A DNA stretch of 64,000 bases, from positions 4,680,643-4,744,642 of the forward strand of contig CBDCTK010000002.1 of the NCBI GenBank assembly GCA_965222225.1, in the 5' to 3' direction. Origin of the DNA: Candidatus Poribacteria bacterium. Its GTDB lineage: Bacteria; Poribacteria; WGA-4E; JAJDTR01. A model generated the notes under the pieces. The model did no database searches and was not told the DNA's origin. It was given only the letters and a program-made list of their open reading frames with translations. Positions 50,537 through 62,738 of this stretch are shown here, one piece after another. The position numbers and the translations under genes are program-made. Numbering within the stretch: the first letter of the stretch is position 1; every line of letters starts with the position of its first letter.

Positions 50537-53500
50537 TTATGCTGCCCAACGCTCCGACAAAACTTCGGCTTGCTCCAAGACGGTTTCAGCGGCTTTAGCT
50601 TGTTTATCGGGTGGATAGCCGTATTTCCGCAGAATTCGCTTCACCAATCGGCGCAGGTTGGCGCGGACGCTCTCCTTCATCGTCCAGTCGATGGTCACGT
50701 TGTTTCGGACAGTTTTCACAAGTTCAGCCGCAATAGTGCACAAGGTCTCATCTCCCAACACTTGCACGGCGCTGTCGTTGGTCTCAAGTGCGTCGTAGAA
50801 CGCCAATTCATCGCTCGAAAGCCCCAACTCCTCGCCGCGCTCTACCGCCTCACGCAACTCCCTTGCTGTTTGGATAAGCTCCTCAATCACCTGCGCGGCT
50901 TCTATTGTCCGGTTTTGATAAGCGCGAATTGATTGTTCCAACATCTCCGCGAATGACCGCGATCTTACGACATTCTGCCGTGAATGCGTCTTGATTTCAT
51001 CGTTGAGCAACTTATCCAAGAGTTCGACTGCCAGGTTCCTTTGCGGTAAGTCCCGCACCTCCGCGAGGAATTCGTCGGAAAGAACTGAGATATCGGGCTT
51101 CTCCAATCCGGCGGCGGCAAAGATGTCAACCACCCCTTCGGGAACGACAGCTCTTGATACCAACTGCTTGATTGCCAGGTCCGCCGCCTCGGACTGCGTT
51201 TCTTCTCTAGCCGTCAGCTTTTCCAAGACACCGCGCACCGCTTGGAAAAAGGCGACATCGTCGCGGATTTCAATTGCCCTTTCGTGCGGCACTACTAGCG
51301 AAAAGGCTTTGGAGAGCGCAGTGACCTCATTCAGTAGGCGGGTTTTGCCATCTTCCAAGCCCAAGATATGCTCTTGAGCGGCGGGCAGTAGCCTGAGGCG
51401 TTCCTCGGTGTTTCCGTCATCCCACGACGACCAATCTAATCCGTGGAACAGCCCACAGCAGATTTCGTGTTTTTCCATCATTACGGCAATGGCTTCGGCT
51501 TTATCAATGGATGGCTCCCCTTTTCCTCCGCTGTCAGTGTAGTCCGCCAATGCTCGCTTGAGATGGTAGCCAATCCCGATATAGTCCACAATAAGACCAC
51601 CGGGCTTTTCGCCGAAGACGCGATTGACGCGCGCGATGGCTTGCATAAGGGTGTGACCTCGCATCGGCTTGTCAACATACATCGTGTGAAGGCTAGGCGC
51701 ATCAAATCCGGTCAGCCACATGTCGCGGACAATCACAAACTTCAACGCATCATCGGGATTCTTGAACCGAACCGCCAGCTCTTCGCGCCGCGCTTTGTTG
51801 CGGATATGCGGTTGCCACGACTCGTCCTCCGACGCTTCGCCCGTCATTACAACCTTAATAATCCCCTGCGTGTCCTCCTCATCATGCCAACCCGGACGCC
51901 TTTCCACAATGGCGTTGTAGAGATCGACGCAGATACGGCGGCTCATGCAGACCACCATCGCTTTGCCGTCCATCGCATCCAACCGCTCCTCGAAATGCGT
52001 GATGATGTCATCGGCAACCAGAGCCAGACGCTTCTCCGTTCCGACCAGTGCCTCAAGTTGAGCCCATTTGGATTTGAGTCGCTCCTTGTGCCTTTCCTCC
52101 TCCCCTTCGGTCACCTCCTCAAATTCCGGGTCAACATGGGGCTTCTCGTTCTCGTCCAGCTCAATTTTGGCGAGTCGGCTCTCGTAGTAGATTCGGACAG
52201 TGGCACCGTCATCAACCGCTTGTTGGATATCATAGATGCTGATGTAGTCTCCGAATACGTTTCGGGTGTTGCGGTCCGTTCCCTCAATCGGGGTGCCGGT
52301 AAAACCGATAAATGAGGCGTTCGGAAGCGCGTCGCGCATGTGACGGGCAAATCCGTCAATAAAATCATACTGGCTGCGGTGGGCTTCGTCCGCAATGACC
52401 ACAATGTTCCGTCGATCGGGCAGTTCAGGCAAGCGGAGTTCTTCATCTTCGGGAAAGAACTTCTGCACCGTGGTAAAAACTACACCGCCCGAAGCAACTC
52501 TCAAGAGTTCGCGCAAATGTCCCCTGTCTCGCGCTTGTTCCGGCGTTTGTCGCAAGAGTTGGCTGCACCGAGCGAACGTACCGAACAGTTGATCGTCCAA
52601 ATCGTTGCGGTCGGTAATGACGACCAGTGTCGGGTTTCGCATCTCCGGGCGCCGGATGATACCCCCGGCGTAGAATGCCATAGTCAGGCTTTTGCCCGAA
52701 CCTTGCGTGTGCCAGATAACGCCGCAGCGTTTGTCCCCGTCTGGGCGCGACGCCTTCACGGTAGCATCGACCGCCGCTCTAACGGCGTGGAATTGGTGAT
52801 AACCGGCAATCTTCTTGGCAATCGTATCGCCTCCCGTTTCCTCAAAGACAATGAAATGACTAAGATAGTTTAGGAACCGCTCCTTGTCAAAGAGGCCCTT
52901 GATTGTTACCTCAATTTCCGGATCTGTTGATGCGGCTTCCGTTTCTCCCTCAATTGTTCGCCACGGCATGAACCGCTCCCGATCCGCCGTCAAAGAGCCG
53001 ACGCGGGCCTCCACCCCGTCGGAAACAACAAGCGCCTCGTTATACGTGAACAGCCGCGGAATTTCCCGCTTGTAGGTCTGAAGTTGGCGAAAAGCGGACC
53101 ACACGGTGGCGTTCTCGTCGGTCGGATTTTTGAGTTCAATCACGCCTAACGGGAGTCCGTTTACAAACAACACGATATCCGGTCGGCGTTCACTATTTTC
53201 CACGACGGTGAACTGGTTAACCGCCAGCCAGTCGTTGTTTTCGGGACTATCGAAATCCAACAACTGCACACGGTCACCGTGCATTGTGCCGTCGGAATCC
53301 CGATATTCGACCTCTATGCCATCAACCAACATGAGGTGAAATGTCCGATTGTTTTGAAACAATGAGGGGGAGTTTGGAGAATGGACTTTTTGAACGGCTT
53401 CCTCTTGCGATACGGCGGGGATGTTCGGATTCAGGCGGCCAACCGCATCGCGCAAACGACGCTCTAGCACCACGTCCTCGTATCTTGAGCGTTCAGCATC

Positions 53501-53605
53501 GGAAGTGTCCGGGCCGATGTCGGGACCGTGCAAGACGGAATAACCCATACCAGCGAGCCAATTCAGTGCGGCTGTTTCGATGTCGGATTCGGTGATGCTA
53601 TTCAT
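50537..53605 (-). CDS. hsdR: Type I restriction enzyme R subunit (endonuclease/helicase)
   Basis: N-terminal PD-(D/E)xK nuclease region, SF2 helicase motifs (GSGKSLTM Walker A; DEAH in …[10 protein letters not shown]…), 1022 aa, and the typical HsdR C-terminal helical domain. Confidence 0.9.
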
Positions 53606-53655: not shown

Positions 53656-54893
53656 TTAATGTGACGAGTTAACATGAAGGCTTTCACCCTGTATTGGACC
53701 ACCTGAATTGGTCAACGGATCCCCAACCTCAAAGAAACCCTCCATCCAGAGGTGTCCTAACTTCCCTCCTGTCTCCATGAATTGATGAATTCCGCGCATG
53801 TCCACCGTGCGTTTGCAAACCGTAAACCCCTCCTCATCTCGATACAGTACCCACACCTCGTCGGCGTGGAGCTCGTTGATAAAATAAGGAAATGGGTAGT
53901 AATCATGAGTTGAGACGAGGCTGACGCCCCACGGCACTCGTCTGTCAAACTAGGCAACAACCGTGGATGTAAGTGATTTTCAGGTTCTCCAATACCGATA
54001 AAGGGGGCAGGCTCTGGATCATGTAGCAGCGTGAGATACGAAAGCAACTTTAACGTGCCCTCCGAGGTAAACTTCGCCAAGATGGATTGCTCAAACGGTG
54101 CATCTTTTATCTGCAACAACAAGCGACCATCCGCCATCAGTTCTGCGTCTACCTTTTCTAGTCGTGGCACCTGATTTGACATAATTGAGAGAATCTTTCG
54201 CAAACGGCTTGGGTGCTGTTCTTTCAAATACTGGATAACGTTCGCCAGATTGTCTCCTGTTTCTGAAAGCTGCTCTCGCGGCCCCGTTGCTTCAACTCCG
54301 CGTGTGGCATCAATGGAAAGATGGGAGAGATGCCAGCCAGTAATGAAACGACGAAGGGGCCCAAGACGTGGGTAGCGCGACAATTGGCCAAGAGTGCTCG
54401 CAGCAAGTGTTGACGAATCATCAAACTGTTCATCGGTTTGCTCCGCTTCCTCATCTGGCATTTCACCCGCGATGACTCGTCCTGCGCCGTGACGAAAATC
54501 AAGAAAACGAAACGGCTTCCCCCGATTGCCGCGCCGCCAACTCATCCATTCGGATTCCACAAAGGGGCCCTGTACTCCTTCATCAATGGCTAGATGATAG
54601 GTGATAATTGGCATTCCCGGTTTCTCACGATATTTCAAATCAAATTCAATTGCTCCATCACTTCCCCGTGTTCGCAGATGCTTAAACCGCCCTCTTTTAT
54701 CCCAGGCACGGCGCAATCCGATTGTGAAACATTCGGAGAGAAACGCAAATACATCAAGTAGCGTGGACTTTCCACTGCCATTGGGACCCGAGAAGACTGA
54801 AAGCGGCGTTATTTTTCGTAATTGCACATCCCGCAGAGAGCGGTAATCTTTCACGCGTAATGACTCAATGCGGGGAACGGTTTGTTGCAGCAT
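53656..54893 (-). CDS. ABC-type AAA ATPase (AAA_15/AAA_21-like, OLD/abortive-infection-type); split by an apparent frameshift near 53890
   Basis: Start ATG 54893 (MLQQTVPRIESLRVKDYRSLRDV…). Walker A SGPNGSGKST, Walker B/D-loop …FIGIGEPENHLHP…, and the H-loop …SQLMITTH. The sequence then continues in another frame as (S)PYFINELHADEVWVLYRDEEG… (ORF 53656..53937), matching the usual TTHSPxLL…EVWVL continuation of this family. Confidence 0.6.
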
Positions 54894-54936: not shown

Positions 54937-56052
54937 TTACCCCTGTTGCGGCGTAGTATAGCGAGCAACAAATTTGCTACTGTCAATATCCGGCTGTCCT
55001 TGTCGGGCATAGAAGGAGGAGAAGCGCGCGACAATATCCTTTACAAAGAAAGGCGAAATCTGGATTGAGGGTTTTTCAAACTTTTCGTCGAATTCGTTTT
55101 TAGTCAGCGCGTTCATTTTTCTGAAATTAAGAAACCCACCGTCAAAAAAATCTGTTTTCGGCAACCAGTGGTAGTAAAATGTGTAATTGTTGTTGAATAC
55201 CGCCTTGAGTGTTTCTTTCGTCTTCTCCCTTTTCCTCTTCTCGTCGCGCATCCTCTTAACACTAACCAATGCCTTGTCTACAATATGATTTTCTTTTTCA
55301 ATCTCAACGAGGAGAATACGATCTGTCCTGAATTCACCGTTACTTTTGAAAACGAGATCGCACGCCGGACTCAACACCACGAAAGGCTGATCGCTCGTCT
55401 CGTCTTTCACAATACTCCCGGTTGTGATATTGCTCGACAACGGTGGATGGAGGTAGACCTCTTCTGGAAAACACCGTTCGTCACCTTCCTCAAGCAGTTG
55501 AAATAAGTGATTCAAGGTGTATCGGAGAAGAGCCTTTTCGGTTCGCTCTGAATCTTCTTTTCCATAAGAAATCCAGGTTTGTATCTGTGACCGAAGGTTT
55601 TTGAGAAAAACTTCATTTAGTCGCTGTTCGATTAGTCCTCTGCCACCCATGATGTGGGTTAATCCCGTATCAAAAATCTCCCAAAATCGGTCTAGAAGTT
55701 CGTCATACCGAGTTTTCCCTTTTTGGAAAACGCTAAGGAGCATGATTTTTTTATTCAAAGTGTAATCTGAATTGCCCGGGTTTGCCGTAAATATGGCAAT
55801 TGGAATGCGGAAAAACGACTCTTCGATCTTTTTGATAACCTGATTCCCCTCATCACCTTCATTCGCTAGTTTTAAATCGATAATCGCACCATCAAAAGAG
55901 TTGTCCAACAGTTCTAATGCTTTATCAAGAGTTTTGCATCCAACCGGTTCAATATCTCGATTCTTTTCATCAACGTATCTTTCCACAGAATCCTTGCACG
56001 CCTCAAGATCTTGTTCGTCGTCTTCCACGATTAGCAACCGTAACTTGCTCAT
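54937..56052 (-). CDS. Receiver (REC) domain protein with an uncharacterised ~250-aa C-terminal domain (candidate effector)
   Basis: N-terminal CheY-like receiver: acidic pocket LLIVEDDE, phospho-acceptor Asp in …DGAIIDLKL…, and a conserved T/K (…IAIFTANPG…). Residues ~120-371 carry no motif I recognise. The start ATG overlaps the upstream kinase stop (ATGA). Confidence 0.6.
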   Translation of the reverse strand: MSKLRLLIVEDDEQDLEACKDSVERYVDEKNRDIEPVGCKTLDKALELLDNSFDGAIIDLKLANEGDEGNQVIKKIEESFFRIPIAIFTANPGNSDYTLNKKIMLLSVFQKGKTRYDELLDRFWEIFDTGLTHIMGGRGLIEQRLNEVFLKNLRSQIQTWISYGKEDSERTEKALLRYTLNHLFQLLEEGDERCFPEEVYLHPPLSSNITTGSIVKDETSDQPFVVLSPACDLVFKSNGEFRTDRILLVEIEKENHIVDKALVSVKRMRDEKRKREKTKETLKAVFNNNYTFYYHWLPKTDFFDGGFLNFRKMNALTKNEFDEKFEKPSIQISPFFVKDIVARFSSFYARQGQPDIDSSKFVARYTTPQQG

Positions 56053-58226
56053 TTACCATTCTCCATCTTGGGCTGAAGTCTGAAATAGGCGCCTTCATCG
56101 GACTCAAAGGCTTTCAACTCAAGACCGTTTCGCTCTGCGGCTTCAGAGGCTATCGCCAGCCCAAGCCCCGTTCCGTCCGGTTTGGTGGAAAACTCAGGTT
56201 CAAAGATGACTTCATTTTCGATGAGGCTCGGTTCAATTCCCGGTCCGCTATCTCGATAGTCAATATGGGACAGAGAGTTACCATCGGTCACGAGTTCGAT
56301 TTTAATTTGCCGTTTGGTTCCTTTCTTTTGGCTCATCCAATAAAGACTGTTGTCGATAAGATTTGTGAAAACCACGTAGATGTCTTGAGACCAAGCGGAG
56401 AATTTAAAGCTGTCAGTACCTCTGATTTCGGTAGATACATCTTCGGATTTCATCTCGTTTTCAAAAACTGAGAGAGTATTCTCTATTGTCTTCTTCAACT
56501 CCAGTGGTTTTTTGGCGGCACGTTTTCCCGCGGCTAGTGGATTAAGTCTTCCGAAGAGTTTCACGAAAATCTCCATATTTTCCTCAACACCATCGGCAAT
56601 CGACAGCATTTTTTCAAGTTTTCCCAGATCCCCGGTTTCCTGAAATCTTTCTCTCCAGTATCTGAGATTCGGTATTTGGTTCCGAAAGTAGCTGAGCGGT
56701 TGGCTGCCTTCATGGACTATGACATTAAGGATTTTCCCTAGAGTGGCTTGCCCTTGGTAAACCCTAAGAGCTTGCCTGATTTCATTAGCATCCCTGCCCT
56801 TATCTTTTTCTACCTGGCCAACGATTTCAATAATTCGATCGATGGTTGGTTGATTGCACCCATCTTCGGTGAGTTGCCTCCGTATGTTCCGTTTCAACGC
56901 ATCAAAGGAGAAAAGCCGTCCCAGCTCCCGTTCCACCTTGATAGCAGGCCGACTCAATCCTGCTTTTCTTCTGTACTCATAACGCCGCCTTTCCAGTTGC
57001 CTGATGACCGCCAGTGTGACTTCCTTCAGCCGATTGAACGCCTCATTCTCTTTAAGCCCGTCCCGAGCGCTTTTTTCCTCCAAGCCGGACCACTCGACCG
57101 AATCAATGTGCACATATCCTATGACTTGATTGTTAGCAATACAGAGTGACGGATTCTGTACGCGTCTCGCGTTCAGTTTCAACCAGTCAAAATCGGCATC
57201 GCCAAGCGGTCGGATGCGGAAGCCGTTCCGATAAACGCCGATACCGTTGTATGCATTCAGAAGCTGTCTCGCCTGATTTTTCCCGACATAGTTGCCCGAT
57301 TCCTCCTTTAGTCCTCGTCCAATCAAAGATTCAATGGCATCGTTGTCGCGGTCATACACACAGATTTCAATTTGAAACTCGCCGCAGCCAGTAGAATTTT
57401 CAAAATCAAATGACACTTCCTCCCTTATATCAAAGTCGATCTGTACGTCGGGAACGTTACGGGCTTTCTGTGATGAGTACGTCAGAAAACCTTTACCATT
57501 TTTTCCGATGTTCCCCGAGATCCTGTAGTCATAGAGATCGAAAAGTAAATAGGGTTCGATCTCTTTCTCAAAGTCCTCCACGCCCGGAAAACCCCGAACT
57601 TTCAAGTTTATACGAAATTCATCATCCTTAAAGACGCTACTCACAGGTGATTTTAGTTTCTTCAACTCAAACTGGAGCTCCTCAAACCGTTTCTGATCCC
57701 ATTCGGCGAGAAGCTGATTATTTCCATTGATGGTCAGTCGTGTGCCTGGTGACTCCGATACCTTCGTTGTTTCAATGGGAATTCCCACGTCATCTAGATA
57801 TTCAGCAGACTCGAATTTGTTCCATTCAAAAGATGCCGTAGTTTTCTCTCCTTCTGGAGTCACAGTTTCGAAAAACAAATCTGTGCCGAGAATGGATGCC
57901 GCATACCGTCCCACACCCTTATTTCCTTGCATTACCCTTCCCCCACGACTGATGCGTTTGTCAAATTTGTCCCGCGTTGACGGCACCATCCATTTGTCGA
58001 TGACATCGTCCCTCGACATCCCGTGACCGTGATCTGAGATAATGATAGAATATCCACTGCGAGTAGGAGATTTCTTGAATTCCACCTGCACATCCGGAGA
58101 GTCTGCATCATACGCGTTTTTTACGAGTTCGACAACAGCCGCAGAATTGTCGTGAATTAGGTCTTTTCCGATAGTCAGAACGTGCCGCCCCGCGGGCCTA
58201 ATTTTATGAGTTGTATTGGCGTTCAT
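56049..58226 (-). CDS. Cytoplasmic histidine-kinase-like protein with an additional N-terminal Hsp90/MutL/MORC-type GHKL ATPase module
   Basis: N-terminus (start ATG 58226, GAGGAGG RBS): GHKL N-box/G-boxes …AVVELVKNAYDA…, …IIISDHGHGMS…, …GNKGVGRYAAS…. The middle has an H-box-like VHEGSQPLSYF. The C-terminus is a canonical HATPase_c: N-box NLIDNSLYW, G1 DSGPGI, G2 GTGLGLAI. No TM helices. Confidence 0.6.
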   Translation of the reverse strand: MNANTTHKIRPAGRHVLTIGKDLIHDNSAAVVELVKNAYDADSPDVQVEFKKSPTRSGYSIIISDHGHGMSRDDVIDKWMVPSTRDKFDKRISRGGRVMQGNKGVGRYAASILGTDLFFETVTPEGEKTTASFEWNKFESAEYLDDVGIPIETTKVSESPGTRLTINGNNQLLAEWDQKRFEELQFELKKLKSPVSSVFKDDEFRINLKVRGFPGVEDFEKEIEPYLLFDLYDYRISGNIGKNGKGFLTYSSQKARNVPDVQIDFDIREEVSFDFENSTGCGEFQIEICVYDRDNDAIESLIGRGLKEESGNYVGKNQARQLLNAYNGIGVYRNGFRIRPLGDADFDWLKLNARRVQNPSLCIANNQVIGYVHIDSVEWSGLEEKSARDGLKENEAFNRLKEVTLAVIRQLERRRYEYRRKAGLSRPAIKVERELGRLFSFDALKRNIRRQLTEDGCNQPTIDRIIEIVGQVEKDKGRDANEIRQALRVYQGQATLGKILNVIVHEGSQPLSYFRNQIPNLRYWRERFQETGDLGKLEKMLSIADGVEENMEIFVKLFGRLNPLAAGKRAAKKPLELKKTIENTLSVFENEMKSEDVSTEIRGTDSFKFSAWSQDIYVVFTNLIDNSLYWMSQKKGTKRQIKIELVTDGNSLSHIDYRDSGPGIEPSLIENEVIFEPEFSTKPDGTGLGLAIASEAAERNGLELKAFESDEGAYFRLQPKMENGK

Positions 58227-58389
58227 AACTGATTGCCTCCTCTTTTCCGCGGTGTTTAATCCCATGAGGTTTAGTCCGTAGCACAAACGATTGAAAAGTC
58301 AATTTGCTTGAATGCCGGCTGAATCATACCGTGAACGTATCTAGAGATTAAGAAATGATGCAGGGACTAGATACACCAAACAGCGGAGA

Positions 58390-59403
58390 TTATATCAAGT
58401 CAAAGAGATGCTGATGCGTAATTTCCGTATGGAACCAAGCTCCATAGGCACTGCGCAACCAGATTTCGGACGTACGAATCCAATCTCTCCAAGCATGCTC
58501 CATTTGTGCACGTTCCACATTCAAGACGCTCCAGAGCATCGGCAGCGACTGCGGCTTCTGAATTAGTAGAGAAATCGCACGTTGGTTTACTTCGGTGCCC
58601 TCAGACACAAATGTCAACGGAATCTCCAAGTAGGGATTGAAATTTGAGGGTAGACTTTCCTCATTGCCTGAAGCAATGTTTGCCGCTAGTTCATGAATAT
58701 GCAGTGCCAGATAATACGCAACTAGTGAAGCACGGTATTCAAATTCATCGCCGAATATGTGTGATAACCACTCCCATCCTGGCCTTTCATACGCTCCGGC
58801 CAAATATTTCCAACCTTTTACGCAATTTCCACCAGAATTACCACTAATCGACTCGGCGTACCCCCTTAATTCACTTCTTTGCCATAGATAAAGGTGCTTT
58901 GATGCATCTGCAACAGGAATCTTCGTTCGTGCAAGATCTAGGGCAAGGTCGAGTTGACCTGTTAACAGGCTAAGCCCTCCGTGGAGACTGTGGTAGACAT
59001 ACCCTAGTACATCAGGAATGTTAGACCATGTTGTGTTACTAGTACGGTTCCATCCCGGGATGTTCATCAAATCATAAATCAAAGACTTTTGATCCTTAAG
59101 TTCCTCTTTGCAGGATTCAACTCCCATTAAGGCAACAGAAATTAAGGGGGAGATGACATTGACGCCACCGTCTACAATCTGAAACAACTTCTCGAAATCC
59201 GGTTCTTGTCCATCCAACTCCCTTTCTCGCCATTTTACCAAGGCTTTGAGCACACTTGGTTTAATTCGTTTCATGAGTTGACGCCACCCAAGCACATCTC
59301 CCGCACGAGCAAGTTCAAATGCTACTGAATAAGCGTCGGATGCCGATTCAACGCACTCCGGGATTTCAGGTAATTGGGCGAAGATTTTAGGATATTCATC
59401 CAT
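58390..59403 (-). CDS. Hypothetical protein (337 aa) in the hsdS-hsdR insert
   Basis: Predicted all-helical protein with no recognised family. It has a C-terminal R-x4-H (…ERAQMEHAW…) reminiscent of HEPN-type signatures, but this is weak. Confidence 0.35.
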   Translation of the reverse strand: MDEYPKIFAQLPEIPECVESASDAYSVAFELARAGDVLGWRQLMKRIKPSVLKALVKWRERELDGQEPDFEKLFQIVDGGVNVISPLISVALMGVESCKEELKDQKSLIYDLMNIPGWNRTSNTTWSNIPDVLGYVYHSLHGGLSLLTGQLDLALDLARTKIPVADASKHLYLWQRSELRGYAESISGNSGGNCVKGWKYLAGAYERPGWEWLSHIFGDEFEYRASLVAYYLALHIHELAANIASGNEESLPSNFNPYLEIPLTFVSEGTEVNQRAISLLIQKPQSLPMLWSVLNVERAQMEHAWRDWIRTSEIWLRSAYGAWFHTEITHQHLFDLI

Positions 59404-59470: not shown

Positions 59471-59731
59471 TCAATCAACGTGAATCTCCCCTGACAAAAG
59501 TTTCGGCAGCAGTGCCTCTCGAATTTGGGAAAGAGTGTGTGATTGATGAATGTTTTCGATAATTCTCCCAATGAGTGGTCGTATTAAATCGCTGTATTTT
59601 TGAGCGATTTCAAGTTGGGGCAGCACGAATTCATACTTTGACATGTCTCTCCAATTGGTTCGTGGCATTCTTGTACCCGTGGAATGAGCGTCAGTATAAG
59701 CAACGAATTCGTCACAGGACACAATCCCCAA
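59471..59731 (-). pseudogene. hsdS: Detached 3' fragment of hsdS (end of the second target-recognition domain plus the conserved C-terminal helix)
   Basis: …SQIREALLPKLLSGEIHVD is the conserved HsdS C-terminal coiled-coil motif. It is in a different frame from the main hsdS ORF and separated from it by ~185 nt. Confidence 0.5.
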
Positions 59732-59916
59732 AACAACATCGAACCATTCTGATTTAATCGGCTGGACAACTAGAATGTCGGTTGAGCAAACCCCATCGGT
59801 CGGCGCAACGCCGACCTTGTGAAAATAAGGTCGAAGTTTCCCAAAGAGGATTTCACCCTTTCTGAATCGAGATTTATTGCTGCCGATTCCGTCGGCAGTT
59901 TGCCATTCAGAGAGAG

Positions 59917-61131
59917 CTATACTCCGCTTGACATATGCTCTAATCCGATATAAACGTCGCTTGAGTCGATTTGGTTAACGTTTGCACTACGTCGAACATT
60001 TTGTGCAATTTCTCCGAGTGTTCCAACCTCCCACCCCTCCGGAATCTTCCCCAACGGCGAATCTTGAAAAGCAGAAGGGAATATGGTGGCGGTTTCCGCG
60101 TCCATGCCAACGGGCTCCCGCCCCTCCATCTTTGCCCGCACGGGATCTAAATCCACAAACCACGACTTGAAGATTGCCTTTGCCATCGCCTCCAGCGTCT
60201 CGTTCATCTGCCGATTAAGTTCGATCTTGTCGTCAAGTGAGCCTAGGATGTTGGCAATCCGGCGTTGCTCAGGAAGAGGTGGTAATGCAACAAGAAAAGA
60301 TTCAATGTGCGCTTTGGTAAGCGCTTTTCTTGTCCCTCCAGAATCGTGACCTAGCACGTAGGCTTTAACCCGCGGAGCACTCAAGTATTTTTGAAGGAAA
60401 GTGCTATTTAACCTATCAGAAGTTCGTATAACGGCAACATGTTGATTCACTCTCGCTGGTAGGGTCCATTTTGGAACAACGCAGCAACGAGCAACTGAAT
60501 CTCCTGTGATGTTCAAAAGCACATCATCTTCTTGTATATCTACCCGCCGTAATTTATATGCTGCAGATTCATCAATGTGGGCTAATCCATCTCTACTGAA
60601 TTCATGATCGTAGACGTTTTGGCTACGGATCAAACTCACTCCTTCCGATTTATAGACGTTCTTCCCGCCTCTAGGCGTCGCGCCAGTGCTTATAAATGAC
60701 GTTACGTCCGCTAAACGAACAACCTCCCAACCGGTAGGCGGCGCTCCTAGGGGTAGTGATTTTAACAATAGCTCATTTATTTTGGCACTTTGATTCTGGG
60801 TATTTTTTGAATTCGTGCATTCACCTGCAGTCTTCGCTTGGCGTATTACCTCATATTCCTCAGCAATCACGTGCTTGAACCCATCTGATAGCACATGCCA
60901 ATCTAACACATCAACCCGAATTGGAAGGTCGGATTCCTCGAATGCCTCTTTCAACTGACGCATGCGCCTTAGGCTGAACGGCTCACTACCGACAACTGCA
61001 AGATCTAGGTCTGAATAATCCTTTGCTGTCCATGTCATCCGTGATCCATAGGCGCGAACCTCGCATTCGGGGGCATGTTCCGTCAGTATGCGTTGAACTG
61101 TTTCAAGATATTTGGGATTAAGGTCAATCAT
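59917..61131 (-). CDS. hsdS: Type I R-M specificity subunit HsdS (truncated in TRD2) with an in-frame N-terminal MNT-type nucleotidyltransferase domain
   Basis: aa 1-98 are a minimal nucleotidyltransferase (…[24 protein letters not shown]…VDVLDWH…). From ~aa 120 it is HsdS (…[18 protein letters not shown]…, central conserved …[44 protein letters not shown]…). It ends ~45 aa into the second TRD. The start overlaps the hsdM stop (ATGA). Confidence 0.65.
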
Positions 61132-62738
61132 TGTGTGCTTTTATGCCCGAACATTCTCAGACTATGCCCAATTGCCTCGTCCTGTCGTCTTGCCTCTGCC
61201 ATCTGATCCGCCAGTCGTTCCGTCAAGAGGGCTATTTTCTCCTCAAACGGCTCGTCATCGTCCTCCTGAGCCTCGGCGCCGACGTAACGTCCGGGGGTCA
61301 ACACATTTCCGTGCTCGTGTATCTCTTCCAAGCTGGTGCTCTTGCAGAAACCCGGGATGTCCGAATATTCACCCGCTCCCTCGTCGCTGCGCCAAGCGTG
61401 ATAGGTGCTGGCAATGCGGGTTACGTCTTCTTCACTGAGTTCCCGGTGCACACGGTCAATCATGGCGCCGAGTTTCCGGGCGTCAATGAACAGCGTTTCC
61501 TTCCTCCGCTTTCGAAAACGAGAATCCTCTTTATTTCGAGCGAGAAACCAAAGGCACACGGGTATCTGCGTCGAATAGAACAGTTGCCCCGGCATCGCGA
61601 CCATGCAATCGACCAAGTCGGCTTCAATGATATTCTTGCGGATTTCGCCCTCGCTGGTAGTGTTGGAACTCATCGAACCGTTTGCCAGCACGAATCCGGC
61701 GATGCCATCGGGCGCGAGGTGATGGATGAAGTGTTGTACCCACGCAAAGTTGGCGTTTCCTGTTGGAGGCACCCCGTAAACCCAGCGCCTGTCCTCACGC
61801 AGTCGCTCGCCTCCCCAGTCGCTGCTATTGAACGGCGGATTGGCGAGGATGTAATCAACTTTCAGGTCGGGATGAAGTTCGCGGTGAAAACTATCGGCGT
61901 GCTCAACCCCAAGATTGGCGTCAATGCCGCGAATGGCGAGGTTCATCTGCGCCAGTTGCCAAGTGGTCGGGTTGGACTCCTGTCCGAAGATTGAGATATC
62001 GTCGCGTCCTCCGCCGTGCGCTTCAACAAAGGCTTCACTTTGGACGAACATGCCGCCCGACCCACAGCACGGGTCGTGCACTCGTCCTTTGTAGGGCGCA
62101 AGCATCTCCACCAGCACCCCCACCACGCAGCGTGGCGTGTAGAACTGGCCGCCTCTCTTGCCTTCTGCGCTGGCAAATTGTGAGAGAAAGTATTCGTAAA
62201 CCCTACCCAAGATGTCCTTCGATCGATTCTCCTCCTCTCCCAAACCGATTGTGCCAATCAGGTCAACTAGCTCGCCAAAGCGACGTTTGTCAAGCATCGG
62301 GCGGGCGAAGTTCTTTGGCAGAACACCTTTAAGACGAGGGTTCTCTCCTTCAATGGCACCCATGGCTTTGTCAACTAGCGTGCCTATTTCCGGTGTTTTG
62401 GCGCGGGCTTGCAGATAGGACCAGCGTGCTTCTGTCGGGACGTAGAAGATGTTTTCCGCAAGGTATTCATCTCGGTCTTCCACAAACTCGTAACGAAAGG
62501 ATTCTTCTTCAAGATAATATTCACTCTCAGAATTAGCGGATTGTTTAAGTAGAAAAGCGTGTCGTTCCTCAAAACGGTCCGAGATGTACTTGAGGAAAAT
62601 CAACCCCAATACGACGTGTTTGTATTCCGCGGCATCAAGATTGTTGCGGAGCTTGTCGGCGGCTTGCCACAAGGTGGCTTCAAAACCGAGCGTCGCCCCG
62701 TTTCCGTTTGGTTTTGACTTTCTCTTGTTTCTTGCCAT
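61128..62738 (-). CDS. hsdM: Type I R-M N6-adenine DNA methyltransferase subunit
   Basis: HsdM N-terminal helical domain, SAM motif I (…[13 protein letters not shown]…), and catalytic motif IV NPPF (…[14 protein letters not shown]…); 536 aa. Confidence 0.9.

Follow-up and report, generated by a model that had tools for sequence, protein, structure and literature searches.

In a computational study, proteins that combine a HATPase_c_3 domain, a DHp-like region and a HATPase_c domain were described as partners of REC-like proteins, encoded beside C5 methylases, Vsr and restriction-modification (R-M) genes (Bellieny-Rabelo, Pretorius and Moleleki, 2021, Genome Biol Evol; PMC8011034). [quoted passage not shown] In prokaryotic MORC and paraMORC proteins, an N-terminal GHKL domain, its motifs intact, precedes a transducer-type domain; these laterally mobile proteins are associated with R-M genes, Vsr and cytosine methylases (Iyer, Abhiman and Aravind, 2008; PMC2292703). 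The catalytic Glu of GHKL was required for defence in paraMORC3-Shedu VcSduA (PMC12137116). For Detocs (DtcA/DtcB/DtcC), it was shown experimentally that a histidine kinase and a REC-effector protein can defend, and both the acceptor His and the acceptor Asp were required (Rousset et al.; bioRxiv 10.1101/2023.01.24.525353). GHKL domains also occur in type II restriction enzymes that are linked to DNA methyltransferases (NF050001, BbrUII/HgiDII; PADLOC REase_II models PDLC03419 and PDLC03485).

A kinase gene and an overlapping downstream gene in the 64-kb window (the whole stretch of DNA analysed) were compared with these systems (Table 1). On balance, the two genes probably form a self-contained cytoplasmic phosphorelay module, with defence against foreign DNA as its most likely role. 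The first-pass annotation had presented the domain combination as one unseen in standard sensors. As a claim of an undescribed combination this did not hold: the architecture and genomic context had been published in 2021 (PMC8011034), and by sequence comparison the present clade is a sister variant. The likeness to HEF_HK/Response_reg_2 comprises the same three-part soluble kinase, a DHp-like His preceding an acidic residue, and an adjacent REC-like partner. At the family level, it extends to a C5 methylase upstream, Vsr directly after the partner and R-M genes of types I and II in enriched numbers; the window has the type I R-M setting. Yersinia, Aeromonas, Acinetobacter, Chlorobi, Geobacter relatives and Hymenobacter are among the taxa common to both. 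PF19191 and PF19192 had no match to isolated segments of the window proteins at E ≤ 10 and none in 13 other clade members (Yersinia, Acinetobacter, Holdemania and ten distant representatives); a sub-threshold PF19191 match of 18 bits occurred on an Agrobacterium relative (~23% identical). Because both families miss this clade, it was called a sister variant. It differs in that the H-box is HisKA-like (H-E-G-x-x-P-L), REC is recognisable by PF00072, and the partner has a conserved 245-aa C-terminal domain not described in PMC8011034. In contrast to the HEF_HK/Response_reg_2 pairs, the window has no C5 methylase or Vsr.

The likeness to paraMORC lies in the N-terminal GHKL and transducer-type domains, the association with cytosine methylase, Vsr and R-M genes, and lateral mobility. 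However, the described paraMORC1–5 families have no histidine-kinase core or REC signalling (PMC2292703), and their output runs through a nuclease or helicase that is fused to them or encoded nearby, whereas a phosphorelay is predicted here. With Detocs, the pair shares a soluble sensor kinase and a response regulator with an effector output, putative here, rather than a DNA-binding one. Membership in Detocs was rejected: DtcA senses via TPR repeats, whereas the window kinase has a GHKL ATPase; no counterpart of the stand-alone REC "buffer" DtcB lies next to the pair, either in the window or in relatives; and DtcC mostly has a PNP-type ATP nucleosidase as its effector, whereas neither PNP nor any other effector family was matched by the partner. 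Moreover, Detocs has no methyltransferase linkage. The N-terminal ~150 residues of the kinase align with the BbrUII/HgiDII-type enzymes at 49.6–51.5 bits, far under the family cut-off of 550 bits; this similarity is limited to GHKL, and a kinase core and a REC partner are both missing from those enzymes. No nuclease family was found in the kinase or partner by Pfam, NCBIfam, PADLOC and PDB-sequence searches, and a linked methyltransferase, as in type II R-M systems, is present in much of the family (C5-MTase immediately upstream in 29/45 loci) and absent from the window and its clade. MADS was also rejected, with matches in neighbouring genes only (MAD3, 81.8 bits, cut-off 420; MAD5, 22 bits, cut-off 400); among the families listed for the kinase and partner, there was no MADS match.

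Table 1. Window coordinates of features in the kinase/partner locus and in the type I R-M operon that hosts it.
Feature	Coordinates	Strand	Basis
hsdR of host type I R-M operon (context)	50537..53605	(-)	ORF; 2300-bit self match
Partner gene, 371 aa	54937..56052	(-)	ATGA (56049-56052) shared by its start and the kinase stop
Partner residues 126-371: conserved putative effector domain	54940..55677	(-)	alignments
Partner residues 1-125: REC domain	55678..56052	(-)	E10-D11-D12, D59 (codon 55876-55878), T89, K111
GHKL-histidine kinase fusion gene, 725 aa, soluble	56049..58226, stop codon included	(-)	ORF (ATG 58226 to stop 56049) and translation; Pfam, two GHKL domains
Kinase residues 570-722: canonical histidine-kinase CA domain (predicted)	56061..56519	(-)	Pfam HATPase_c, conservation, AF2
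Kinase residues 396-560: HisKA-like DHp after a long helical linker (predicted)	56547..57041	(-)	AtoS/ZraS models, conservation, Foldseek
Putative phospho-acceptor H505	56712-56714 (codon)	(-)	
Kinase residues 200-395: beta-rich transducer-like middle domain	57042..57629	(-)	AF2 model, Foldseek, conservation
Kinase residues 1-190: conserved strap (R10, R14, H15) and Hsp90/MutL/MORC-type GHKL ATP-binding domain	57657..58226	(-)	Pfam, NCBIfam, PDB profile, motif conservation
Shine-Dalgarno AGGAGG	58236..58241	(-)	9 nt 5' of ATG 58226; read from sequence
hsdS of host type I R-M operon (context)	59917-61131	(-)	Pfam, PADLOC; tblastn vs relative's HsdS
hsdM of host type I R-M operon (context)	61128-62738	(-)	Pfam and PADLOC

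Architecture of the kinase

The start Met of the kinase was shared by its homologs, and the homolog search recovered P0001, a protein of 100% identity, along with 3109 homologs. Conservation was counted over 116 full-length cluster representatives (30–57% identity), with figures expressed out of 117. TM-like segments were absent (highest Kyte-Doolittle 19-residue mean, 0.78), in agreement with the soluble protein of the first-pass annotation.

The GHKL motifs of the N-terminal module were E33, N37 and D40; D65xGxG69; and G101xxG104xG106. Pfam HATPase_c_3 was matched at residues 29–142 (E = 2.9e-18, 66.7 bits, cut-off 25), and the N-terminal regions of MutL, HtpG and BbrUII were matched in NCBIfam. 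A profile of residues 1–460 searched against the PDB matched the N-domains of HtpG, Hsp90, Grp94 and MutL, and no histidine kinases were among the matches. In the homolog alignment, E33, N37 and D40 were conserved in 116/117 sequences and D65 in all 117; G67, G69, G101, G104 and G106 were found in at least 115/117, and position 121 was T or S in 116/117. The middle domain, modelled with pLDDT mostly 70–90 over residues ~200–335, had no family match by sequence. It included a highly conserved block at 326–400 (R333, R337, W348, R355 and the invariant R388). If the domain supplies a basic residue to the ATP site, as an S5-like transducer does, these Arg residues would be candidates for it. With the AlphaFold model, Foldseek aligned ~450–500 columns with the whole GHKL and transducer modules of MORC2 (with DNA), SMCHD1, MORC3/4 and Hsp90, at TM-scores of 0.3–0.5. 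Residues 1 to ~400 were assigned by profile and model to an Hsp90/MutL/MORC-type GHKL and transducer-like ATPase module; the Hsp90/MutL/MORC type had been proposed for the N-terminal ~200 aa from their motifs. The conserved strap residues R10, R14 and H15 hint at ATP-dependent N-terminal dimerisation and hydrolysis.

The C-terminal domain contained conserved N (N622, N626), G1 (D659xGxG663), F (F675) and G2 (G685xGxG689) boxes, and Pfam HATPase_c was matched at residues 615–722 (E = 7.5e-19, 68.7 bits, cut-off 26.4). N622 and N626 were present in 117/117 sequences, D or N at position 659 in 117/117, G661 in 115/117, and G685, G687 and G689 in at least 111/117. The pLDDT values were 73–90 over residues ~570–660 and 77–81 over ~690–720, with 54–56 in the loop at 661–690. 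The motif V-H-E-G-S-Q-P-L, pointed out earlier as H-box-like and placed about 100 aa upstream of this domain, was located ~110 residues N-terminal to it. H505 occurred in 116/117 sequences, E or D at position 506 in 113/117 and P510 in 78/117. Pfam HisKA was not matched by the kinase; the NCBIfam AtoS and ZraS models gave an unbroken alignment over residues 483–717. Foldseek aligned the C-terminal ~250 residues with the DHp and CA cores of HK853 (HK853-RR468), YF1 and HprS, consistent with the ordinary sensor-kinase catalytic domain of the first-pass annotation. A check for a DHp hairpin ahead of the CA domain had been suggested as well; such a segment was supported by helices predicted at 459–505, 519–531 and 534–560 and by the HK853 and YF1 alignments, whereas the monomer model gave it low confidence (pLDDT 29–55). 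By these matches, residues ~480–722 are a HisKA-like DHp followed by a canonical CA domain, and kinase activity is predicted.

The two GHKL modules are distinct and not one split HATPase_c, because each has its own complete motif set; a single HATPase_c with an insertion was rejected, and all the motifs first quoted for the two modules were present. As judged from motifs and model, one polypeptide joins an Hsp90/MutL/MORC-type ATPase, a long helical linker and a class I histidine-kinase core. The same fusion was found in other genomes, with the two-GHKL architecture in 120/120 best homologs and 968 clusters (50% identity) matching the kinase at E ≤ 1e-30. The architecture therefore results from neither chance nor misassembly.

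The partner gene and the family-wide neighbourhood

The REC domain of the partner was recognised by PF00072, and the phospho-acceptor position D59 was invariant. By these features the partner carries a genuine REC domain and, from its sequence, is a cognate response regulator with a predicted acceptor Asp. The 245-aa C-terminal domain, which was kept in Campylobacter plasmid homologs, had the invariants P229-x-C231-D232, T243, H295, N309-F-R311, K338 and R343-F-S...R350-Q-G-Q-P354. It had no match in Pfam, NCBIfam, PADLOC, PHROGs or PDB sequences and no detectable similarity to a nuclease or other effector; the fold searches were dominated by the REC domain. From its position and conservation, this domain may act as the executor, and its many invariant polar residues are more typical of an enzyme.

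A partner homolog was adjacent to the kinase in 42/43 assessable loci, and a C5-MTase was directly upstream of the pair in 29/45, often with overlapping genes. Vsr was found within 6 kb in 25/46 loci, and the commonest arrangement was a C5-MTase upstream of the pair with Vsr directly downstream. Type I hsdM and hsdR were both found in 10 loci, and the cassette often sat between hsdS and hsdR. The pairwise divergence of the kinase was correlated with that of the partner (rho = 0.94) and the C5-MTase (rho = 0.89). The linked Dcm-type C5-MTase is cognate and co-diverges with the pair. Many phyla contained homologs, and conjugative plasmids carried them as well. The pair moves horizontally and is nearly always co-inherited. 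No PADLOC defence model matched the kinase or partner, apart from generic GHKL. The coupled REC-effector partner, the usual cognate methyltransferase of the family and the minus strand had not been mentioned in the first-pass annotation.

These findings bear on the reading given in PMC8011034, in which the pair acts as a two-component regulator: an intracellular cue (e.g., NTP levels) would be sensed by the kinase, and the phosphorylated partner would control the expression or activity of the neighbouring R-M genes. This reading, already in print, agrees with the canonical phosphorelay residues in the kinase and REC partner and with the consistent adjacency to methyltransferase and R-M genes, and a C-terminal fold that matches nothing leaves room for a novel DNA-binding domain. 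However, the partner matched no HTH or other DNA-binding family, even with E ≤ 10 allowed, and the invariant C231, D232, H295, N309, R311, K338, R350, Q351 and Q353 are polar, catalytic-type residues resembling those of an enzyme. Furthermore, most loci have no separate restriction nuclease inside the cassette to be controlled, and purifying selection persists where the pair is an orphan or lies in differing R-M contexts. In distant relatives, defence-type arms take the place of the partner: an MBL hydrolase that has an LmuA-like match, or an HNH gene. A regulatory role was regarded as unlikely.

The Poribacteria locus

The window hsdR had 1800–2140 bits to the hsdR genes flanking the pair in relatives. 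The window hsdS had an N-terminal nucleotidyltransferase fusion, and its reading was interrupted according to tblastn with the HsdS of a relative. The neighbouring genes included a bSEFIR remnant (without a SEFIR/TIR domain) and a HEC-01A-type ATPase, both defence genes; the neighbouring AAA ATPase had a 1-nt frameshift. The defence setting suggested at first was thus confirmed: the pair lies within a type I R-M operon, in a defence island. The GC content of the pair was lower than that of the flanking hsd genes. No C5-MTase or Vsr was present within the 64-kb window, and both were also absent from its Poribacteria clade. Since the methyltransferase is absent and the pair lies in a type I R-M operon, the pair here would act independently of an adjacent C5 methylase. 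A simple rule of cutting DNA that lacks an m5C mark therefore fails at this locus, unless a cognate methylase is encoded elsewhere in the genome.

With three neighbouring genes damaged (the bSEFIR homolog, the AAA ATPase and hsdS), the defence island may be decaying, and the pair in the window could be a remnant without function, left from a cassette (C5-MTase/HK/REC/Vsr) whose methylase and Vsr have been lost. The relative L004, in which the kinase is split and an intact partner is missing, agrees with this reading. However, both ORFs in the window are intact with every catalytic residue present, the Shine-Dalgarno sequence and ATGA coupling are kept, and six other Poribacteria loci have an intact pair at the same position. 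In this methylase-less clade, the kinase had a dN/dS of 0.14 (range against six clade members, 0.12–0.16) and the partner one of 0.21 (0.17–0.27). The clade keeps the pair under purifying selection despite the missing methylase and Vsr. Moreover, the neighbour defects are possibly long-read assembly errors, and decay of the pair itself appears improbable.

A role in very-short-patch repair, in which the MutL-like ATPase would help the linked Vsr to fix T:G mismatches from deaminated 5-methylcytosine of the linked Dcm-type methylase, is very improbable: the MutL/Hsp90-like N-terminus, the commonest gene layout and the functional MutL-Vsr interaction in E. coli (cited in PMC2292703) agree with it, but Vsr is missing from 21/46 loci, including the window and the whole Poribacteria clade, where the pair is nevertheless under selection, the presence of Vsr is explained by the methylase because Vsr often accompanies any m5C methylase, the histidine kinase, REC and 245-aa domains have no role in known repair of this type, and the module is mobile and located in defence islands.

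Proposed mechanism

For the defensive phosphorelay favoured here, the resemblance of the N-terminus to GHKL-bearing type II restriction enzymes, the Detocs precedent and the defence-gene neighbours were counted as support. The kinase would be a constitutive dimer via DHp. Its N-terminal GHKL pair would close ATP-dependently on a ligand, most plausibly DNA by analogy with MORC2, and would therefore stand in for the usual sensor domain; a role of this module as a DNA clamp or sensor is inferred from that analogy. Closure would be relayed via the helical linker, so that the CA domain autophosphorylates H505. The phosphate would then pass from H505 to D59 of the partner and release the activity of the partner C-terminal domain, which would act as executor, possibly as a nuclease or another toxic enzyme. 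The linked m5C methyltransferase of most genomes would probably provide the self mark or an antidote.

A more specific version is put forward tentatively. In this restriction-like or abortive defence, a MORC-like ATP-driven DNA clamp may serve as the kinase input, and foreign or unmodified DNA may trigger the His-to-Asp relay to an effector enzyme whose fold has not been seen before, with the m5C methyltransferase, where present, setting the self mark. If this is true, a MORC-like clamp that feeds a histidine kinase would represent a defence, restriction-like or abortive, of a new type.

Domain architecture and conservation of the kinase

The coordinates of the kinase ORF fit those of the first-pass annotation exactly. 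Its description of a protein with two different GHKL modules was correct in every particular, the minus strand being the sole addition. A TTG codon 60 nt upstream would lengthen the ORF; this start is unlikely because AGGAGG lies 9 nt before the ATG and homologs start at the equivalent Met. In the Pfam search, residues 29-142 matched HATPase_c_3 (E 2.9e-18) and residues 615-722 matched HATPase_c (E 7.5e-19). The NCBIfam models of AtoS and ZraS aligned without a break over residues 483-717, corresponding to the DHp and CA domains, in agreement with the reading of the C-terminal module as an ordinary sensor-kinase catalytic domain. The first 230 residues matched MutL, HtpG and the N-terminus of BbrUII/HgiDII-type restriction enzymes in NCBIfam. 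A Pfam search of the isolated segment 200-480 matched no family. No TM-like segment was found, as anticipated for a soluble protein. The architecture is almost certainly correct.

Features of the locus in the window
Feature	Coordinates	Strand	Length	GC	Remark
hsdR	50537-53605			~0.54	
AAA_15/AAA_21 ATPase	53659-54893	minus			between partner and hsdR; PADLOC candidate HEC-01A, 426 bits
Partner	54937-56052	minus	371 aa	0.425	next gene after kinase; overlaps kinase stop as ATGA
Kinase	56049-58226	minus	725 aa	0.466	ATG at 58226, stop at 56049
bSEFIR remnant	58390-59403	minus	337 aa	0.456	upstream of kinase; aligns to residues ~178-511 of a ~500-aa bSEFIR-type protein
hsdS	59917-61131 and 59474-59758	minus			interrupted after first target-recognition domain; C-terminal part in another frame
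hsdM	61128-62738			~0.54	

The AlphaFold2 model of the kinase had a mean pLDDT of 67.9. Three regions were modelled confidently, namely GHKL (~30-190), a middle domain rich in beta structure (~200-335) and CA (~570-720). The helical region 426-569 was poorly modelled, which was expected because a dimeric DHp four-helix bundle was modelled as a monomer. The Foldseek matches in the PDB fell into two classes. The first spanned ~450-500 columns and covered in full the ATPase modules of Hsp90, MORC2 (also in complex with DNA), SMCHD1 and MORC3/4; the second spanned ~245-250 columns and covered DHp and CA kinase cores (HK853-RR468, the LOV kinase YF1 and HprS). A profile of residues 1-460 matched HtpG, Hsp90, Grp94 and MutL among the PDB sequences and did not match histidine kinases. 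Hence, the N-terminal part represents a whole GHKL plus transducer-type ATPase module, which supports both its earlier assignment to the MutL/Hsp90/MORC type and the structural interpretation proposed with it. This module occupies the usual place of the sensor domain and is connected to the kinase core by a long helical linker (~395-500).

The kinase was searched against 1.84 billion cluster representatives, and 968 clusters (50% identity) matched at E <= 1e-30; nearly all of the best 150 matches were full-length, single-stretch proteins of about 700-750 aa. Conservation was evaluated in an alignment with 116 full-length representatives of 30-57% identity. The N-terminal GHKL motifs (E33, N37 and D40; D65xGxG; GxxGxG) were kept in at least 115 of the 117 sequences and H505 in 116. 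The N and G2 boxes of the CA domain were kept in at least 111 and the G1 box in at least 104, and position 659 was D in 107 and N in 10. The middle-domain block 326-400 (R333, R337, W348, R355, R388) was also highly conserved. The conservation of both motif sets argues that both nucleotide sites are used. A single HATPase_c split by an insertion was ruled out, since a full motif set is present in either module and kept across the alignment, and the best family differs between the two. A gene-fusion artefact was likewise ruled out, because the same domain fusion was present in other genomes, in 120 of the 120 best homologs and in the 116 divergent representatives.

Genomic setting of the kinase and its partner

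The neighbours of the kinase were mapped with phmmer in 51 loci from one-genome-per-species contigs, 46 of which had a full-length kinase. The partner was directly downstream in 42 of 43 assessable loci. In 29 of 45 loci, a C5 cytosine methyltransferase of ~420 aa directly preceded the kinase, and the genes often overlapped. Vsr was no more than 6 kb away in 25 of 46, as a rule straight after the partner. Diverged C5 methylases were present in two other loci and a type I system directly upstream in one, and a few loci were orphans. In Bacteroidales, Methylophilus and Nitrospirales genomes (loci L027, L032 and L035), the four-gene cassette was located between hsdS and hsdR. Judged by sequence, the linked methyltransferases form a cognate family, with a mean pairwise identity of 0.67 and a target-recognition region that was not hypervariable. 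The divergence of the kinase correlated with that of the methyltransferase (Spearman 0.89) and of the partner (0.94), which reflects co-inheritance as one unit and is no independent evidence for physical interaction.

Kinase relatives (46-79% identity) were found in Poribacteria, Desulfobacterota, Gamma-, Alpha- and Zetaproteobacteria, Firmicutes, Bacteroidota, Actinobacteria, Planctomycetota and others. The family is mobile: copies occurred on plasmids, including 41 from Campylobacter, of which those listed were conjugative or ~50-75 kb, and its spread includes Campylobacter pTet-like conjugative plasmids. The gene order on the Campylobacter plasmids was kinase, response regulator, then dcm. 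At the DNA level, the Enterobacter plasmid copy matched nothing in the complete E. coli genomes, and phage genomes gave two distant matches only, both in unannotated fecal contigs. The pair bore only the RefSeq names ‘sensor histidine kinase’ and ‘response regulator’ or ‘hypothetical protein’. In one MAG (L001 / L015, 1-10000), an ApeA-like HEPN, an AAA_15/21 ATPase and a SocA_Panacea/DUF5131 protein were upstream of the cassette and a second type I R-M system was downstream, which indicates a dense defence island.

In distant kinase relatives, the methylase and the effector arm are both exchanged. A Burkholderia aenigmatica plasmid (L055, NZ_CP091649.1, 2619-7788) encodes an HsdM-like MTase, the GHKL-kinase, a 228-aa RR and an MBL-fold hydrolase with an LmuA-like match. 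A Clostridiaceae element (L037, 13262-14509) has an HNH_5 gene after the partner. A Rhizobium plasmid (L057, 3530-9254) carries an 866-aa GHKL protein with the N-terminal module only; after it come a 438-aa protein of unknown kind, dcm and vsr.

The ATGA overlap couples the partner translationally to the kinase. Its REC domain, with the conserved D59, gave a weak Pfam match (E 1.6e-4). Residues 126-371 were strongly conserved in the alignments, with many invariant polar residues (P229-x-C231-D232, T243, H295, N309-F-R311, K338, R343-F-S...R350-Q-G-Q-P354), and this domain was still fused to REC as far as the Campylobacter plasmid homologs. It matched nothing in Pfam, NCBIfam, PADLOC, PHROGs or the PDB sequences, where the best profile match, RNase R (E 0.11), was not credible. 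Fold searches with the full-length partner model gave REC-like matches only and none for the C-terminal domain. The hhalign comparisons with Vsr and the HsdR N-terminal nuclease domain gave no signal, the control pair being undetectable as well. From the motif pattern only, D232...E250/E252 could be read as PD-(D/E)xK-like and C231/H295 as Cys-His; no test supported either.

The Poribacteria clade and the window locus

The nearest kinase relatives were in Candidatus Poribacteria MAGs (71-79% identity), with the order hsdM, hsdS, bSEFIR-type gene, kinase, partner, sometimes an AAA_15/21 ATPase, and hsdR. C5 methylase and Vsr were absent from the clade loci and from the whole 64-kb window. Within the clade, the kinase had a median dN/dS of 0.14 and the partner one of 0.21, denoting purifying selection. 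The GC content of the genes inserted between hsdS and hsdR (54937-59403) was 43-47%, below that of hsdR and hsdM, which agrees with their having entered the type I operon later.

The 337-aa ORF comprised only the C-terminal two-thirds of a bSEFIR-type defence protein, which was intact in related Poribacteria loci (L002, 8259-9794; L003, 6611-8152 and 8323-9831, a tandem duplicate). No SEFIR/TIR-coding sequence was left anywhere in the window. This gene was ruled out as a third component, being the remnant of an independent gene confined to the Poribacteria clade and absent from locus L008. The ATPase was also ruled out as a component, as only 5 of the 8 clade loci, and none of the other surveyed loci, contained it; a one-base deletion near 53905, in the conserved ‘TTH-SPYF’ region, splits the gene into two frames. 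The gene could be a pseudogene, or the deletion an error of assembly. At the N-terminus of hsdS, an MntA-like nucleotidyltransferase domain was fused to the specificity subunit, a fusion also found within some PADLOC Specificity_I models. The damage in these three neighbours may be real decay or assembly errors. In another Poribacteria locus (L004, 9983-13846), the kinase was split into two ORFs and the partner was either absent or joined to the ATPase ORF downstream; thus, the module does decay in some genomes.

Known systems and the proposed mechanism

The domain combination had been considered unseen in standard sensors; it is not new, because the same architecture and context were published by Bellieny-Rabelo et al. 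(2021, PMC8011034). Proteins with HATPase_c_3, HEF_HK and HATPase_c (174 of 222 sequences) were paired there with Response_reg_2 proteins (91.6% linkage); C5 methylases lay upstream, Vsr followed the RR-like gene and R-M genes were enriched. The authors related the HEF_HK proteins to paraMORCs and offered a regulatory function as speculation. [quoted passage not shown] PF19191, which was in the searched library, gave an 18-bit sub-threshold match on an Agrobacterium relative ~23% identical to the window kinase. The window family is therefore treated as a sister clade of the same kind rather than as a member of these Pfam families; it differs in its HisKA-like H-box (H-E-G-x-x-P-L) and more canonical REC. 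It may already sit within the larger orthologous groups of that study. ParaMORC1-5 occur in R-M contexts (Iyer et al., 2008, PMC2292703), but none has a kinase core. MADS was ruled out, with weak sub-threshold matches only, all in neighbouring genes. No literature on experiments with the window kinase family was found, and the module is a variant of a computationally described, experimentally untouched kind; everything functional is what we infer. The remaining interest is the proposed mechanism and the putative effector domain of the partner.

The domain anatomy, the mobility of the module and its setting in defence islands are observations, on which the following mechanism is proposed. The kinase would be a constitutive dimer through DHp. 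By analogy with MORC2, the N-terminal GHKL pair would close with ATP on a ligand, most plausibly DNA; an ATP-driven closure cycle of this kind is in keeping with the conserved strap at the N-terminus and the conserved basic residues in the middle domain. [quoted passage not shown] A working phosphorelay is probable. The C-terminal domain would be the executor: its position matches DtcC-type effectors, its invariant residues are enzyme-like, and distant relatives carry other arms there, namely a short RR with an MBL-fold hydrolase having an LmuA-like match (Burkholderia plasmid) or an HNH gene (Clostridiaceae element). Two precedents are Detocs, a defence system of kinase and REC-effector that depends on its His and Asp (bioRxiv 10.1101/2023.01.24.525353), and VcSduA, in which a GHKL ATPase can gate a defence nuclease (PMC12137116).

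A restriction-like role is attractive since the cassette has no other candidate restriction component at most loci; a nuclease activity of the effector is nevertheless a tentative suggestion. The Poribacteria clade is methylase-less yet constrained, so the pair is able to function when no C5 methylase lies next to it, and a plain ‘cleave unmethylated sites’ model is insufficient, at least in this clade. A role of the pair in defence is rather likely, and a phosphorelay-driven defence module, slightly less certain, is the best overall explanation. A regulatory two-component system is unlikely, as no DNA-binding signature was found and the composition of the cassette counts against it. That the pair is a decaying remnant in the window, like its damaged neighbours, is improbable, given that both ORFs are intact and dN/dS is low; an accessory to Vsr repair is more improbable still, as Vsr is missing from almost half of the loci.

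[quoted passage not shown] The kinase family is large and spread over many phyla and conjugative plasmids, and it is annotated as an ordinary sensor histidine kinase. If the phosphorelay-driven defence mechanism is true, it would be the first MORC/Hsp90/MutL-type ATPase acting as the sensor of a histidine kinase and, after Detocs, the second and mechanistically distinct case of a two-component phosphorelay that executes immunity instead of regulating genes. Moreover, DNA-clamp ATPases, epigenetic self-marking and phosphotransfer would be joined in one small cassette.
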